Below the pieces are notes generated by a model. The model saw nothing but the letters and a program-made list of their open reading frames with translations, was not told the DNA's origin and did no database searches. A program made the translations under genes and the position numbers. From a phage, in sequence record OZ317122.1: DNA of 64,000 nucleotides; one strand, given 5' to 3'. Below, piece after piece: positions 2,458 through 35,155 of the stretch. Positions within the stretch are counted from its first letter, which is position 1, and each line of letters begins with the position of its first letter.

Positions 2458-4278
2458 CTACTGGCTCATCCATTCTTTACGAAGGTCAGCATTATCTCCC
2501 ATGAGCATTTCAAAAAGCTCTTTCCAATTCTCAGGAAGTTTAACAACATCATATACTGGATTTTGAATCATCTCACGATATTCAGATTTTTCCAAAGAGC
2601 CAAGTCCTTTAATATAACGGATGCTATGTTTAGGTAGAGCATCTTTAGCACTCTCATATTCAGCGACTGTATAAAACCATTCTTGTTTTTTACCGACCTG
2701 AGCGATGATTACAGGAGTTTTGACAAAACGAATTCGTCCTTGCTCAAACAATTCTGGCCAATTACTAAAAAATCCAAGCAGAGAAGGATAAATGCTTCCT
2801 AGGCCATCATGGTCAGCATCAGTCATAATAGCGATATTATGATAATTCAAGTTTTCAGCTTTTTCACCGAGAACTAATCCAGTGATTGCGCAAATATCAA
2901 ATAGTTCTTTGTTTTTAAGCATATCTGCATAAGACATACCCCAACTGTTGAGAACTTTACCGCGCAATGGATAACCACCGTGAAGTTCTTTATCACGAAC
3001 ATCAATAAGATATCCGATAGCCGAATCACCCTCAGTCAAGAAAAGAGTAGTGTCAGCATCTTTACCACAAAGATTCGCTTTGATATGTTTATGAACCTTA
3101 GCTTTAGAAGCCTTTTTAGCTGCTTTAGTTTCTGCTGCTTTTTCTGCCGCCAATTTACGAGCCAAAGCAGCTTCAATAATCGGCATTAGAATTGCTTCAT
3201 TATTTAGAATAGCGCGTGAAATCTTTTTAGCATCAAGCTGAATATGACTACGAATTTCACCAAAAGGAGAAGTAAGTCGTTCTTTAGTTTGAGAATCAAA
3301 TCGCATGTTTTTCATATCACGGACAAACATAACGATAGTCAAACATTCTTTAACACGCGCTTTAGTTACATCAATTTTGAACTTACGTTTGATTTGTGGA
3401 ATAAGGTCTTCACAAATATCATCCATAACACAGTCAATGTGATGGCCACCATTCTTAGTGTGAATGTTATTGACGTATGTTAATTGACGAAAACCATCCG
3501 GTGAACGACCAACCGCAATAGAACAATTTTCTTGTTCTTGAACGATAGCATGCTCATCATATTGGCGTGCATATTTCTTAAAATTGCCCTGAACCTTTTT
3601 ACCATTAAAGGTAAATTGAATATCAGGATAAACTACTGCAAGTGTCTGGAGACGATCTAGTGTAATGTCAAGATAAACTTGGGACAGCTCATTAGTTTCA
3701 AATGACATAAAATCAGGAATGAAAGTAACACGAGTTCCTTTCCATTTTCCAGGAATAGTTTCCCATGATTTATTTTCCATGCCATTTGAACAACGAACTA
3801 CAATATTATTTTGACCATCACCAGTTTCACCGACAAACATCACAGAAAAAATGTTTGTCAAACTAGAACCAACACCATTCATACCGCCAGTGACGCGTTC
3901 TTTATCATCACCGAAGTTACCACCTGCTTTTGGAATAGTCCATGCAGCAACAGGACCAGGAATTTCTTCACCGGTAGGTGTTTTAACCATCGCCTGCGGA
4001 ATACCACGACCGTTATCTTCAACTGTTACTTGATTGTTTTTAATAGTAACATTAATTTTATTTGCGAATTTAAACTTAGTACGAATACCTTCATCTACTG
4101 AGTTATCGATAATTTCATCAATAAGCTTAACAAGACCAGGTACATACTGAACACTTTCCCATTTACCAAACAGAAAGCGCTCATGCATTTCATTAGCAGA
4201 AGAGCCAATATACATGCCACTACGCTTTTTGATATGCTCAATATCGCTCAGAATTTTAATTTCATTCTTAATCATCAC
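2458..4278 (-). CDS. 39: DNA topoisomerase II large (ATPase, GyrB-like) subunit, contiguous form covering gene 39 plus gene 60 equivalents
   Basis: 606 aa; N-terminus MIKNEIKILSDIEHIKKRSGMYIGS; GHKL ATPase motifs; one uninterrupted ORF. Confidence 0.9.
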   Translation of the reverse strand: MMIKNEIKILSDIEHIKKRSGMYIGSSANEMHERFLFGKWESVQYVPGLVKLIDEIIDNSVDEGIRTKFKFANKINVTIKNNQVTVEDNGRGIPQAMVKTPTGEEIPGPVAAWTIPKAGGNFGDDKERVTGGMNGVGSSLTNIFSVMFVGETGDGQNNIVVRCSNGMENKSWETIPGKWKGTRVTFIPDFMSFETNELSQVYLDITLDRLQTLAVVYPDIQFTFNGKKVQGNFKKYARQYDEHAIVQEQENCSIAVGRSPDGFRQLTYVNNIHTKNGGHHIDCVMDDICEDLIPQIKRKFKIDVTKARVKECLTIVMFVRDMKNMRFDSQTKERLTSPFGEIRSHIQLDAKKISRAILNNEAILMPIIEAALARKLAAEKAAETKAAKKASKAKVHKHIKANLCGKDADTTLFLTEGDSAIGYLIDVRDKELHGGYPLRGKVLNSWGMSYADMLKNKELFDICAITGLVLGEKAENLNYHNIAIMTDADHDGLGSIYPSLLGFFSNWPELFEQGRIRFVKTPVIIAQVGKKQEWFYTVAEYESAKDALPKHSIRYIKGLGSLEKSEYREMIQNPVYDVVKLPENWKELFEMLMGDNADLRKEWMSQ

Positions 4279-22994: not shown

Positions 22995-23837
22995 TTAATC
23001 AACTGCTATTGGATGAATAGCATTAAACTTATGAAATGCTTCTGATTTTTCTTTACGCGAAACGCACATGCGAAGAACCTTTAATGGCTCGTCTTCTTCA
23101 CCCAACGATTTTCGTTTTTCAATATTAGAAGTTTTCCAACGAGCTTGCTCTGGAAACTCTCTATTGATTTGCTCAAGCGCTCTATTATGTTTAGAATTAC
23201 TACGAATTGAACTACACCCGCCAGGAGCTTGTGCTTTTCCAGATACAACTAGATATTTGAACAAGGCCAAATGCGGATAACCTTGATTAATTAAATTGAG
23301 AAATGCATACATATCTTCGCATAAATCAATTTTTCCATACCCAATTTGTTCTGTCGTAAGTTTTCCGAGGTCATACCATGTATTCGTGAATCCATATGAA
23401 TTTTCACGATAATTACCCCAAGATGAAGTAATTTTAAAAATTGGTAGACGAGCATGACCGTGATAATACCCGCAATCCATGGCATCTTCAACATATTGAA
23501 TCAATTCATAGAACTGTTCACGAGTTAATTGATTAATTTTATCTACGCGCCGTTTATCGTCTCTCTTTCGTATTGAACTCATACGGATAGTAGTATCATC
23601 GTCAATCATCCAGATTCGTTGGCCTGCATACATATCAGTAATTGCTTTACGAGTACCGGCAATTCCGTTTACATCATCAGGAATAGTTATAATTTTAGCT
23701 CTAGACCCATAGGCATCATAATAAGCTTTTTCTTCATGTTCACGCACTACAATATGGGGTTCATAATCAGTCGGAAACATATCAAGGGCAGAAACTGCCC
23801 CGACACGCTGATAACTTGGAATTACGAATTGAATCAT
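22995..23837 (-). CDS. putative DNA-modifying glycosyltransferase at the beta-gt locus (not T4-type beta-gt)
   Basis: 280 aa; DxD-like IDDDTT; sits between uvsX and 42 where T4 has its 351-aa beta-gt. Confidence 0.45.
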   Translation of the reverse strand: MIQFVIPSYQRVGAVSALDMFPTDYEPHIVVREHEEKAYYDAYGSRAKIITIPDDVNGIAGTRKAITDMYAGQRIWMIDDDTTIRMSSIRKRDDKRRVDKINQLTREQFYELIQYVEDAMDCGYYHGHARLPIFKITSSWGNYRENSYGFTNTWYDLGKLTTEQIGYGKIDLCEDMYAFLNLINQGYPHLALFKYLVVSGKAQAPGGCSSIRSNSKHNRALEQINREFPEQARWKTSNIEKRKSLGEEDEPLKVLRMCVSRKEKSEAFHKFNAIHPIAVD

Positions 23838-24475
23838 TTAAGTGCCTTACATTTGTCAAAATGGTATCTTGTCATATTTGGCCCACGTCCTTTTAGTCCG
23901 CAATGCGGACATATTTTTTCTATCAAATTATGAGGTTTTCCTTTACGATTTTTAGACATCGTTTCTTTAATTATTTTAGCTTTTTCTACGCCAAAAATTT
24001 CTTCATAAGTTTTACCAGAATTTTCCTTGGCTCGATTTATAATTCCATATGCCTGCTCATTTTTACCATACATTGGATTACCTTCGCCTTTCATTCTTTT
24101 AGAATGATCAGGACGCTTGATTCCACGAAAGGCATTTCCGCACTTATATCTTTCTTCTGGAGATAGTTTTTTACCGTACATTCCATTTAATTTGCCTGGA
24201 AAACTTCCTCCCCATGCTTCATTCTTTAAATTATATGAATCCGGACAATTAGCAGCATCTAAACAAGTTAAAATAATTTCTTCAACCTGTCTAAACATTG
24301 GTCCTTCATATAATATTTCTTTATTAAAGGATTTTATTCCATATTTCTTTTTAGCATGTTGCCAAACTACACCCGAACCATCATAATTCGGGTTGTGACC
24401 ATCATGACTTCCTATATACCACTTTTTAGTTTTAGGATGTTTATACTTATAAACATGTGGCACATTTACTTCCAT
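23834..24475 (-). CDS. GIY-YIG homing endonuclease (Seg-like) with C-terminal zinc finger
   Basis: 213 aa; VYKYKHPKTKKWYIGS GIY-YIG motif; CPHCGLKGRGPNMTRYHFDKC; overlaps both neighbours. Confidence 0.75.
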   Translation of the reverse strand: MEVNVPHVYKYKHPKTKKWYIGSHDGHNPNYDGSGVVWQHAKKKYGIKSFNKEILYEGPMFRQVEEIILTCLDAANCPDSYNLKNEAWGGSFPGKLNGMYGKKLSPEERYKCGNAFRGIKRPDHSKRMKGEGNPMYGKNEQAYGIINRAKENSGKTYEEIFGVEKAKIIKETMSKNRKGKPHNLIEKICPHCGLKGRGPNMTRYHFDKCKALK

Positions 24476-25206
24476 TTTCCAGTATAATCCTTTTTAGCAA
24501 TATGAGTCTCACCGGTGTTCCACCAATGGTCAACTAAATAAAACTGATTTTCGTACACATGAAGACTTCCAACGTTCCATATAATAGAACCTGCTTTATA
24601 TTGCCGCGATGGGTCGCCTGCATTCAAATCAGATACTAATTTATCTAGTACGTATTTTTGCCAAGCATAATCATTACGATAGCCTGCCCAGCAATCATTG
24701 CTTCTCATGCTAACAACCGCATTGACTTTCTTATCACGAATCAGGTACTGTACTGTATTAGTACACATGAAATCTGACATACCATCTTTATTGTAGTCAA
24801 ACTGCATAGATGGACGAGTATAAATCATGATACCACGTCGAGAATCAGGATTTTGACCAAGTTCAGCTAAACACATATCATACTGGGCATAGTTATCTTC
24901 TGACCAAATAGCCCAACCATAATTCGAGTTAATTTCGCCTTTAGAAGATGCTACCTGCTGCCAAATCTTTGGTGTTTCACCTGGAATATCTTTAACAAAC
25001 AAACTCTTAGATTTATACCATTCAAGTTCACGCTGAATGTATTCATCATTAAGAGCGCCAAAAATAAACGGTTCATCTGCTACAAATGATGCGCCAATAA
25101 TTTCAATAGTTTTAACACCAGTTTTATCAACTACGAAATCTTTTTCTTTTAATGCAAGCCCCAAATGAAGACGGATTTCTTCAACTGTCATAGAGTCACT
25201 AATCAT
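24466..25206 (-). CDS. 42: dCMP hydroxymethylase
   Basis: 246 aa; N-terminus MISDSMTVEEIRLHLGLALKEKDF. Confidence 0.9.
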   Translation of the reverse strand: MISDSMTVEEIRLHLGLALKEKDFVVDKTGVKTIEIIGASFVADEPFIFGALNDEYIQRELEWYKSKSLFVKDIPGETPKIWQQVASSKGEINSNYGWAIWSEDNYAQYDMCLAELGQNPDSRRGIMIYTRPSMQFDYNKDGMSDFMCTNTVQYLIRDKKVNAVVSMRSNDCWAGYRNDYAWQKYVLDKLVSDLNAGDPSRQYKAGSIIWNVGSLHVYENQFYLVDHWWNTGETHIAKKDYTGKWK

Positions 25207-32716: not shown

Positions 32717-32724
32717 TATAAATA
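32717..32724 (+). promoter_or_regulatory. late promoter TATAAATA for the HNH gene
   Basis: exact TATAAATA on plus strand about 34 nt upstream of ATG 32758, followed by AAGGA SD. Confidence 0.6.
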
Positions 32725-32757: not shown

Positions 32758-33474
32758 ATGAATTATAAACTAATTTATGAAAAGTTAATCTCTAATGCTA
32801 AATCTCGAAAACTTGATTGCTATACTGAATCTCATCACATTATACCACGCTGTTTAAATGGCAGCGATGATGCTTCAAACTTAGTAGATTTAACACCAGA
32901 AGAGCACTATGTAGCTCATCAACTTTTAGTAAAAATTTATCCTTCTGAACCAAAATTAGTCTATGCTGCTAACATGATGACAGTTTCCACGAAATACGCT
33001 AAACGCAACAATAAAACTTTCGGTTGGATTCGTCGTAAACTCTGGGAAATAGAAAAGAATAAAGAATTCTCCCAGGAGACACGAAAGAAAATGTCTGATG
33101 CAGTAGCTAATAAAGCAAGACTAACTTGTCCTCATTGCGGTAAGTCTGGATTAAGTGGGAATATGAATCGTTGGCATTTTGATAACTGCCCAAATCACCC
33201 TAATCCTAAAGTTAGACCACCAATGTCTAAAGAACATAGAAATAATATCTCAAACGGGCTTAAAGCAATCGTTCTTGAAGAAACATCCTGCGAATTCTGC
33301 GGAATGATAGGCAAGAAATGCGTTATCGCAGCGCATAGAAATTTCTGCAAGAAAAATCCAAATGGACGCAAGAAAACTGAAAAGACTGGTACTTGCGTCC
33401 ACTGTGGTAAAGTTACCACTTTCGGAAATTTATCAAGATGGCATAATGATAACTGTAAATATAAACCTAGCTAA
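32758..33474 (+). CDS. HNH homing endonuclease with three zinc-finger modules
   Basis: 238 aa; ESHHIIPRCLNGSDDASNLVDLTPEEHYVAH; three CxxCG...NxxRWH.DNC modules; opposite strand to all neighbours. Confidence 0.8.
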   Translation: MNYKLIYEKLISNAKSRKLDCYTESHHIIPRCLNGSDDASNLVDLTPEEHYVAHQLLVKIYPSEPKLVYAANMMTVSTKYAKRNNKTFGWIRRKLWEIEKNKEFSQETRKKMSDAVANKARLTCPHCGKSGLSGNMNRWHFDNCPNHPNPKVRPPMSKEHRNNISNGLKAIVLEETSCEFCGMIGKKCVIAAHRNFCKKNPNGRKKTEKTGTCVHCGKVTTFGNLSRWHNDNCKYKPS

Positions 33475-35155
33475 TCTTAGCTAAACTAAATCTACCAACT
33501 TTTTCCATTTGAATATGCTGACCATATTCTTGTGGGTCATGGTCTTTATGCGAAATTATGAAGAAGTTGGTATCCTTCAAACCATCTAAAATTTTAGCTA
33601 CATTTTTAATACCTTCAGCATCAAATGCACCGTCATACACTTCATCAAGAAATAAACAACTTATTTTAACACCTGAAACTTTTTCAGCAATATCACGCCA
33701 AGTAAATAAAAGAGCAATATCAATTCGCGCTTTTTCACCTTGACTGAATGAAGCATAACTAAAATCTTCACGACCACGGGATTTAATTGTCTCATTAAAT
33801 TCTTCATCTAATGTAAACACATAATCCGCTTCCATTATTTTAAGATAATGGTTAATCTGCTTATTAAATAATGGAATGTACTTTTTAATAATAGCACCTT
33901 TAATACCAGAATCTTTGAGCATATCAGTCAAAATTCCTCGGTGGTATTTTTCCATTACTAAATTAGTTTTTGTCTTAACAATTTTATCAAGTTCTTCTTG
34001 AAGCAGTGCTATTTCATCAGCATGGTCAATAAACTCAGAAGATGCTTTTTCTATAGCCGCTTTAACCTTTTTAGCTTTATCTACTGCTGCGATCAGAGAT
34101 TGCTTTTTATTGCGAATATCATTTGCTAACGACTGTTGGGTTTTAATATTATCTCGGTATTCATCAACAAGAACTTTTAAATTATCACGATGTGTTGAAA
34201 GCTGTTCAAACGAATGCGTACATTCAGAAACTTTATCTTTAATTTTAGAAACAACTTTATCACCGGAACTTAATTGTGACAAGCAGGTTGGACATAATCC
34301 ACCTTCGTGATACATATTAATGACTTTATTATACGAGTCAATTTTTGATTTAATTAAAACTGCTTCTTGACCGATTTTATTAAATGCATCAGTCGGGTCT
34401 TCGTCTAAAACAATATTAACTAATCTTTCATTAGCTTCTTCTATTTCCGATTTTAGCGTTCTAGCTTCTTTTGCCAAATCATCATACATATTTTGCAGAC
34501 GAGTAAGGTTGTCACCCGTTAATTTTTTCTGGCGTTCAACGTTATCATTATATATTTTAATTTGTTGGATAATACTATCTTTTTTAACATCAAGCACTTG
34601 GTTTTGTGAATTTAATTCGCGTATTAGTGCTTTATTAAGCTTATCCATTTCAGCTAATGTTCCTACCTCAAGCAAGTCTTCCACAAGCTTTCTTCGCGCA
34701 GGGGTCGACAAACCCATGAAAGGGGTATACCCTGCTGTACCAAGGACAACAATCTGCTTGAAACTGGCATATGACATTCCGATAAGCTGTTCAAATTCTG
34801 CTTGGAAATCTTTACTGCTGGCAGATTCATTAAGACGTGTACCGTTAACGGTGATTTCGAAAACGTTCGGTTTTTGTCCTCTTTTGATATAGTACTTTTT
34901 CTCATCATATTCCATCCACAGTTCAACTAAAAGTTCTTTCTTATTTGTGCTGTTTATTAATTGACCTTTCTTTACATCACGAAATGGCTTGCCAAAAAGC
35001 CCAAATGTGATGGCTTCTAACATAGTAGACTTACCACCACCATTTCGTCCAGTAATAAGAGTTTTTTGAACCTTATCTAATTGAATGTCAATAGGATTTC
35101 CACCTACTGACATTATATTTTGGTACCTAACTCGGTTTAGTTTAAAATTCTTCAC
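33467..35155 (-). CDS. 46: recombination nuclease subunit (Rad50/SbcC-like ATPase)
   Basis: 562 aa; Walker A GRNGGGKST; long coiled-coil; C-terminal signature/Walker B. Confidence 0.9.
   Translation of the reverse strand: MKNFKLNRVRYQNIMSVGGNPIDIQLDKVQKTLITGRNGGGKSTMLEAITFGLFGKPFRDVKKGQLINSTNKKELLVELWMEYDEKKYYIKRGQKPNVFEITVNGTRLNESASSKDFQAEFEQLIGMSYASFKQIVVLGTAGYTPFMGLSTPARRKLVEDLLEVGTLAEMDKLNKALIRELNSQNQVLDVKKDSIIQQIKIYNDNVERQKKLTGDNLTRLQNMYDDLAKEARTLKSEIEEANERLVNIVLDEDPTDAFNKIGQEAVLIKSKIDSYNKVINMYHEGGLCPTCLSQLSSGDKVVSKIKDKVSECTHSFEQLSTHRDNLKVLVDEYRDNIKTQQSLANDIRNKKQSLIAAVDKAKKVKAAIEKASSEFIDHADEIALLQEELDKIVKTKTNLVMEKYHRGILTDMLKDSGIKGAIIKKYIPLFNKQINHYLKIMEADYVFTLDEEFNETIKSRGREDFSYASFSQGEKARIDIALLFTWRDIAEKVSGVKISCLFLDEVYDGAFDAEGIKNVAKILDGLKDTNFFIISHKDHDPQEYGQHIQMEKVGRFSLAKIS

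Follow-up and report, generated by a model that had tools for sequence, protein, structure and literature searches.

What is the extra gene that separates gene 42 from the glucosyltransferase gene in some T4-like phages, and how does it come to lie there? We addressed this question in a stretch of 64,000 nucleotides of sequence record OZ317122.1 (hereafter the window), which derives from a T4-like phage, a Tequatrovirus with glucosylation of the T2/T6 type. The minus strand carries, in this order, the DNA polymerase gene, the imm region, gene 42, an open reading frame (ORF) of 213 amino acids (23834-24475, including the stop codon, minus strand), the gene for beta-glucosyl-HMC-alpha-glucosyltransferase (ba-gt, hereafter the transferase) and uvsX. 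An earlier reading, made from the sequence alone (the sequence-only reading), took this ORF for a GIY-YIG homing endonuclease gene wedged between its neighbours. Our results agree with it: the ORF is very probably a free-standing homing endonuclease gene of the T4 Seg type, encoding a GIY-YIG domain, a NUMOD3-like linker and an I-TevIII-type zinc finger, and moving by intronless homing with co-conversion of flanking sequence. We refer to it below as the seg-like gene.

The inserted gene and its nuclease domain

The seg-like gene overlaps both of its neighbours on the minus strand, as had been read from the sequence. Its first 10 nt, beginning with the ATG, are at the same time the last 10 of gene 42 (ATGGAAGTAA), and the letters ATGA are common to its stop codon (TGA) and the transferase start, giving a 4-nt overlap. 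Gene 42 (24466-25206, minus strand), the probable target gene, encodes dCMP hydroxymethylase, as indicated by PF00303 at 1.3e-14 and by the gp42 annotation in relatives. The downstream neighbour (22995-23837, minus strand) encodes a transferase of the T2/T6 type with 280 amino acids, identified by PF20691 (TAGT) at 3.2e-10 and again by annotation in relatives. The 2.4-kb region as a whole is 99.4% identical to Shigella phage ESh29.

That the gene is wedged in can be seen from relatives without it. The region is matched by 541 phage records, and the seg-like ORF is present in 78 of them. Among the matches listed, most non-carriers align with 73% coverage and in two pieces, with a span of 1,769 bp vs 2,401. 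Alignments of 2.4-3 kb from six carriers and seven non-carriers place the gap at 23838-24469, in agreement with the spans in the non-carrier records, so that exactly 632 bp are absent from the seven sampled relatives. In phages e11/2 and RB14, gene 42 and the transferase gene are joined directly, overlapping by ATGA. The insertion site, at the gene 42 stop and the ba-gt start, is exact, and the end of the insert recreates AAATGA, which preserves the start context of the transferase. Presence or absence at one exact site between conserved genes is what is expected of a homing gene. The site is one that none of T4's 15 endonuclease genes uses, as none of them lies at the 42/transferase junction (PMC2988022 Table 1). 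We found no named Seg at this junction in the literature either, where coverage was incomplete and the evidence of absence is weak. When IMG/VR was scanned for the exact patterns of the two junction types, only 4 and 1 loci came up, too small a number for use. A chimeric query, built from a carrier-type gene 42 end and the transferase start, did not separate the two classes, as BLAST merged pieces 632 bp apart; the relevant record, Escherichia phage CJY920, was inspected directly (see below).

The seg-like gene probably has no promoter of its own. The late-promoter motif TATAAATA was not found near it, sigma-70-like sites near it occur at chance level only, and a hairpin that would sequester its ribosome-binding site was not detected beyond chance (z-score -0.54). 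Because of these results we regard the gene as a probable promoter-less cassette that is translated from the gene 42 message, like segC, segF and segG, which are among several T4 Seg genes of this kind (PMC2988022). The transferase start is preceded by AAGG. Within the first transferase codons, 33 nt beyond the seg-like stop, there is a hairpin rich in G+C with a T-rich run behind it (GGGGCAGTTTCTGCCCT TGATATGTTT; 23785-23801, minus strand), and a terminator is annotated in this region in the records fPS-2 and DalCa. As the hairpin is also conserved in relatives without the seg-like gene, it is not part of the insert.

The catalytic domain spans residues ~6-90 (24206-24460, minus strand). The GIY and YIG motifs noticed in the sequence, here VYKY...WYIGS, fall on invariant or nearly invariant columns of an alignment of 30 homologues. 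No homologue departs from Y20 and G22, and at least 90% of them have Y9; the counterparts of these residues in I-TevI are Y6 and Y17-V-G19. N82 of the pair Y81-N82, which aligns to Y89-N90 of I-TevI, is also invariant. The equivalent of I-TevI Glu75 is either E65 or E66, both within the second helix, with an uncertainty of one or two positions. The predicted structure has the beta-beta-alpha-beta-alpha core fold of the GIY-YIG superfamily. The protein matches PHROG 314 ('homing endonuclease') at 2e-31 and has 70 homologous clusters. Among the 30 aligned homologues, PF19835 (SegE GIY-YIG) is found in 10, PF01541 in 6 and NUMOD3 in 18 (best E 4.5e-10). A search of the PDB with the family profile gave the I-TevI catalytic domain as the sole match (E 0.05); in this match the motifs GIY, YIG and YN are in register. 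An ABC-transporter match from a single-sequence PDB search (E 0.52) was rejected as spurious, the identity of the protein being settled by the family profile and the structure prediction. Several GenBank records already label the gene 'homing endonuclease', 'similar to segC' or 'SegD'.

Behind the catalytic domain lies a basic linker (residues ~94-178; 23942-24196, minus strand). The Lys/Arg-rich repeats that the sequence-only reading described are indeed basic linker repeats, but they are better described as NUMOD3-like units. PF07460 (NUMOD3) matches residues 125-138 with 18 bits, under its gathering cut-off of 20.4, and matches in homologues and helical segments in the predicted model mark the same region.

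Recoding of gene 42 and probable spread of the seg-like gene

Next, we focused on the sequences that flank the insert. All 41 differences that are fixed between the six carriers and seven non-carriers fall at 24475-24705, in the final ~235 nt of gene 42, with none on the side of the transferase. Divergence between the groups is 0.209 in this tract vs 0.035-0.041 elsewhere, the latter being equal to the diversity within groups. On the basis of fixed differences, divergence and amino-acid signatures, we delimit a putative co-conversion tract at 24470-24705 (minus strand), which is also the candidate target and immunity region. Co-inherited flanking target sequence is a mark of homing genes, and here it is found on one side only. 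The differences form four clusters. Residues 172-176 of gp42 (24679-24693) change from VVFGF to CWAGY in carriers, in a loop between S169-N170-D171 and R177-N178-D179; residues 199-200 change from ST to PS and residues 219-221 from SRH to ENQ, and the fourth cluster comprises the C-terminal residues. In T4 gp42, we take Cys148 to be the nucleophile and Asp179 to be the residue for cytosine specificity, and the numbering used here fits.

At an identity of at least 95%, the carrier type of the tract is found in 81 records, compared with 78 carriers of the gene. Phage CJY920 (an UNVERIFIED record) has the carrier-type tract (CWAGY, GDPSRQ, ENQFY) and no endonuclease gene at the junction, and the last ~40 nt of its gene 42 are of the non-carrier type. 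In the stretch retrieved from this record, gene 42 lies at 1497-2237, ba-gt at 661-1500 and a segA-like ORF within 1-700; a T4-type segA is placed between the transferase and uvsX. CJY920 possibly represents a resistant allele without the gene, or a precise loss.

Homologues of the seg-like gene, 65-70% identical, directly follow gene 42 in Klebsiella phages Roth78 and KP185 (Jiaodavirus) and in Yersinia phage MHG19, in which a T4-type beta-gt lies downstream. The gp42 proteins of these three phages have CWAGY or CWAGF together with (E/Q)NQFY. The VVFGF/xRHFY type is found in non-carrier Tequatroviruses, T4, Merlin (Moonvirus) and CkP1 (Karamvirus); the 42/transferase junction is empty in T4 and Merlin and holds another gene, of the HNH class, in CkP1. 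As all of these carriers are of the CWAGY type and the listed non-carriers of the VVFGF type, the signature tracks the endonuclease gene and not the phylogeny in the sequences of three lineages. Between lineages the seg-like gene is under purifying selection (dN/dS ~0.1-0.17), with dS saturated. Within the carrier group, the insert has a nucleotide diversity of 0.0038 vs 0.037-0.043 in the flanks. Diversity that is ten-fold lower in the insert, on diverged backgrounds, gives it the look of a recently spreading element.

The gene at the junction of Citrobacter phage CkP1 (653-1192 of the retrieved stretch) is a Mob-like HNH ORF of 179 amino acids (HRHHVIPR...NLVYLTPEEH). It overlaps gene 42 by 10 nt, and gp42 of this phage is of the VVFGF type. 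Because CkP1 has an HNH gene at the same place, both nuclease classes appear to have a hotspot at the 42/transferase junction. Damaged copies were also found. The copy in Roth78 (2501-3117 of the retrieved stretch) matches in two pieces, with a frameshift near codon 42. In Klebsiella phage vB_KpnM_GF (a partial genome; 1864-2590 of the retrieved stretch), codons 1-214 of gene 42 are followed by the last ~30 codons of the seg homologue (the finger) in another frame, and then by the transferase, which is either a deletion remnant across the 42/seg boundary or an assembly error. The frameshifted copy in Roth78, the remnant in vB_KpnM_GF and the lack of the gene in CJY920 would represent decay stages typical of such elements.

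Homing would account for these observations as follows. In a mixed infection, the enzyme, anchored on the DNA by its C-terminal finger, would cut the allele without the gene within the last ~240 bp of a VVFGF-type gene 42. The break would be repaired from the carrier genome, so that the 632-bp gene and the adjoining segment of gene 42 are copied in. Substitutions in the copied segment, including VVFGF to CWAGY beside Asp179, would then make the carrier allele resistant to cleavage. Seg enzymes are known to cut away from their own gene and to co-convert the flanks (PMC2988022). For the seg-like protein, we infer cleavage activity, the position of the cut and the resistance of the CWAGY allele from sequence comparisons. 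A narrower and tentative proposal, which we hold to be possible though not likely, is that the endonuclease targets the loop-coding part of gene 42 beside Asp179 and spreads over several T4-like lineages together with its own resistant, altered loop (VVFGF to CWAGY, SRHF to ENQF).

Several observations weigh against homing by an active enzyme. A Pfam scan of the seg-like sequence itself did not call a GIY-YIG domain at E <= 0.1, and the score for TIGR01453 (group I intron endonuclease) was 24 bits against a cut-off of 56; the curated thresholds of PF01541, PF19835 and TIGR01453 are an operational test and not a structural defining feature. Nothing in the protein aligns with the catalytic Arg27 of I-TevI, the segment around Arg27 and His31 being missing in the subfamily. 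Among the matches listed, the carrier records REP2, PYps5T and BCH953P2 match in two pieces, and the span in REP2 is 638 nt instead of 639. The comparison of carriers and non-carriers covers six and seven genomes, respectively, of the 541 matching records. Moreover, the linked tract might not determine immunity but simply have come in together with the gene as a block of foreign sequence.

With the catalytic arginine not alignable, the curated GIY-YIG models not reached, frameshifted and deleted copies in existence and a gene 42 tract that has residues typical of other carrier lineages, the seg-like gene might be an inactive or decaying relic. In that case a single event of ordinary recombination with a more distant T4-like phage would have brought the gene and the gene 42 block into Tequatrovirus, where only general recombination and descent would have spread them since. 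We consider this unlikely. Neither the low diversity of the insert over diverged backgrounds nor the low dN/dS between lineages fits a relic, and the 30 homologues show conservation of the whole finger as well as of the Tyr, Gly, Glu and Asn positions. The association with CWAGY in three lineages runs against phylogeny. As for the arginine, T4 SegA and SegC share the same N-domain variant, with the same deletion of the Arg27 segment, and PMC2988022 (Table 1) lists both as active. For this reason we treat the missing segment as a probable trait of the subfamily, not as a sign of inactivity. The subfamily has the pattern YIGSHxGxxxxYxGSG, and one homologue (P0058) retains RRKKGH. In place of the arginine, H23, K44 or R62 might serve. 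The two-piece copies in Roth78, REP2, PYps5T and BCH953P2 could be pseudogenes or frameshifts, or sequencing errors.

Less probable still is that the gene mainly serves the phage, by excluding the markers of competitors or as a DNA-binding regulator, with homing as a secondary matter. In mixed infections, markers are indeed excluded by T4 homing endonucleases, and I-TevI doubles as an autorepressor (PMC2988022); the gene is, furthermore, packed tightly into its operon with start and stop overlapping. Its presence in only 78 of the 541 related records shows that it is dispensable, however, and nothing in the sequence suggests a regulatory site. A benefit to the phage would also be compatible with homing and is not an alternative to it. 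Intronless homing with co-conversion remains the reading that we prefer.

The C-terminal finger and its HNH counterpart

The seg-like protein ends in a Cx2Cx12Hx3C finger (C189, C192, H205, C209; 23849-23911, minus strand). The spacing C189-x2-C192-x12-H205-x3-C209 fits the I-TevIII-type CX2CX12-13HX3C, and the C-terminus is predicted to form a beta-hairpin and a helix (beta-beta-alpha) that bear the four ligands. In all six frames of the window, the pattern C-x2-C-x8-16-H-x3-C occurs four times, once in the seg-like ORF and three times in a single ORF at 32758-33474 (plus strand), with fingers at 33127-33189, 33289-33348 and 33394-33456. This second ORF encodes a Mob-like HNH homing endonuclease (PHROG 655 at 8.6e-69; T4-type MobE aligned over its full length at 35%). 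The HNH gene runs opposite in direction to its neighbours and overlaps gene 46 (33467-35155, minus strand) by 8 nt. One of four matches to TATAAATA (the T4 late-promoter consensus) in the window, at 32717-32724 (plus strand), lies 34 nt upstream of its ATG. At an identity of at least 95%, the HNH gene is found in 60 phage records.

The sequence-only reading held the finger to be nearly identical in pattern to all three HNH fingers, and took this as a sign of domain shuffling between nuclease folds. The seg-like finger and HNH finger 1 are identical at 13 of 21 residues, including the non-ligand P, G, G, N-M, R and H-F-D. When the four metal ligands were kept fixed and the other 17 positions shuffled, the BLOSUM62 score of 51 over these non-ligand positions was reached by 0 of 100,000 shuffles. 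For finger 3, 25 of 100,000 shuffles came up to the observed score. Pairwise similarity far beyond chance therefore holds for fingers 1 and 3; finger 2 has a different spacing (Cx2Cx11Hx3C) and is a weak match (domain E 0.018). The two whole proteins match in BLASTP with E = 5e-9. As the finger DNA of the two genes is identical at only 38 of 63 positions (60%), any exchange between them must be ancient.

To place the finger in a wider context, a profile was made from the fingers of 28 GIY-YIG-family homologues and searched against 380 sequences, consisting of 375 ORFs of the window and five controls. It matched the seg-like protein, the HNH protein of the window (1.4e-18), T4-type I-TevIII (7.4e-9; each of its fingers ~7e-5) and MobE (9.2e-7). 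There was no other match among the 375 window ORFs, and T4 SegA and SegC were not matched. A single finger of this kind is found at the C-terminus of T4-type MobE, and two are found in the defective I-TevIII of T4. HNH fingers 2 and 3 are matched by PHROGs 27406 and 12324. With lengths of 97 and 269, the profiles of these PHROGs are as long as those of the defective T4 I-TevIII and of full-length RB3 I-TevIII, respectively, so that both are presumably I-TevIII families. None of the Pfam models matches the finger, even in T4 I-TevIII.

Among 1.84 billion cluster representatives, a finger profile of this type found 8,708 proteins at E <= 0.001. The best 149 of these comprise 57 Seg-type GIY-YIG proteins, 33 Mob-type HNH proteins and 59 others, which include other HNH and canonical GIY-YIG proteins. 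These comparisons support the view that the finger module has been combined many times with different nuclease folds, and the proposed domain shuffling is upheld as an ancient process. Convergence on a short metal-binding motif, in place of common descent, could draw on a motif of only 21 residues and on the low DNA identity, and is very improbable in view of the identical non-ligand residues, the scaffold-preserving shuffles that never reach the finger 1 score, the matches of a GIY-YIG-only profile to HNH protein, I-TevIII and MobE, and the presence of both nuclease classes among the best 149 of the 8,708 clusters.

The shuffling seen here is an instance of a known principle and not a new one. 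That GIY-YIG and HNH homing endonucleases exchange DNA-binding modules is an established idea (PMC1865063); Robbins et al. (2007) proposed it in general terms, and the 2003 NUMOD paper by Sitbon and Pietrokovski, as cited in PMC2330249, is on the same idea. For the two fingers of I-TevIII, a PAR assay and Cys-to-Ala mutants have shown that they bind zinc and that DNA binding and cleavage depend on them (PMC1865063). By analogy, the seg-like finger would bind zinc and DNA. An I-TevIII-type finger on GIY-YIG enzymes was not found described in the literature, where coverage was again incomplete and the evidence of absence is weak.

Five metagenomic proteins (P0071, P0072, P0074, P0088 and P0196) carry 7-9 tandem CCHC fingers behind a GIY-YIG or HNH domain. 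The fingers follow each other with a period of mostly ~33-45 amino acids in P0071, P0088 and P0196, and at wider, irregular distances of up to 55 amino acids in P0072 and P0074. Judged by their sequences, these are natural poly-zinc-finger nucleases, and no description of such 7-9-finger arrays was found in the searchable literature.

Comparison with known systems and significance

The closest counterparts of the seg-like protein in T4 are SegC and SegA, which are likewise free-standing between conserved genes and have the same N-terminal variant (Y..YxGxH......YxGSG....A.KKYG..F, ...YN..GG). SegC is the best T4 match, with 35% identity over residues 7-138, and SegA is encoded one gene away, at the uvsX/beta-gt junction (PMC2988022 Table 1). 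Unlike the seg-like protein, both lack the CCHC finger, and their insertion sites differ. I-TevI, the GIY-YIG endonuclease of the td intron (PDB 1ln0/1mk0), is intron-encoded, whereas the seg-like gene is free-standing. I-TevI keeps the segment around Arg27 and His31; its zinc finger, which measures distance like a ruler, lies in the linker ahead of a helix-turn-helix, whereas the CCHC finger of the seg-like protein is a C-terminal module. I-TevIII (of the RB3 nrdB intron) and T4 MobE share the CX2CX12-13HX3C finger, but their nuclease domain is HNH and their target nrdB, compared with a GIY-YIG domain and, probably, gene 42 here; I-TevIII, moreover, is a two-finger protein that acts as a dimer, whereas the seg-like protein has one finger.

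In its arrangement, the locus resembles the intronless homing systems SegF/gene 56, SegG/gene 32 and MobE/nrdB, in which a free-standing gene lies beside a conserved target, the cut is distant and the flanks are co-converted (PMC2988022). The linked tract of 235 nt has the form expected from SegF/56 and SegG/32, from which the seg-like case differs in target gene and enzyme; in our case population data point to cleavage and co-conversion.

The general principles involved, the free-standing endonucleases that T-even phages have and modular DNA-binding domains, are already textbook knowledge. What is added is a Seg-type endonuclease, so far uncharacterised, that is well delimited, has a defined site of insertion and comes with a short region as its candidate target. 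Of the new points, the linked, recoded loop of gene 42 and the size of the finger family are the most useful. The I-TevIII-type CCHC finger is a large module family (~8,700 clusters) that is unmodelled in Pfam, which is of use for annotation, and the tandem-finger proteins are natural counterparts of engineered zinc-finger nucleases that may be of use in nuclease engineering. With putatively resistant and susceptible natural alleles, and a gene-less relative that has a resistant-type tract, the locus is convenient for studying intronless homing and co-conversion. If the endonuclease does target the loop-coding part of gene 42 beside Asp179, a selfish element would repeatedly rewrite the active-site region of an essential nucleotide-modification enzyme, and the VVFGF and CWAGY types of gp42 would be maintained by nuclease pressure and not by enzyme function.

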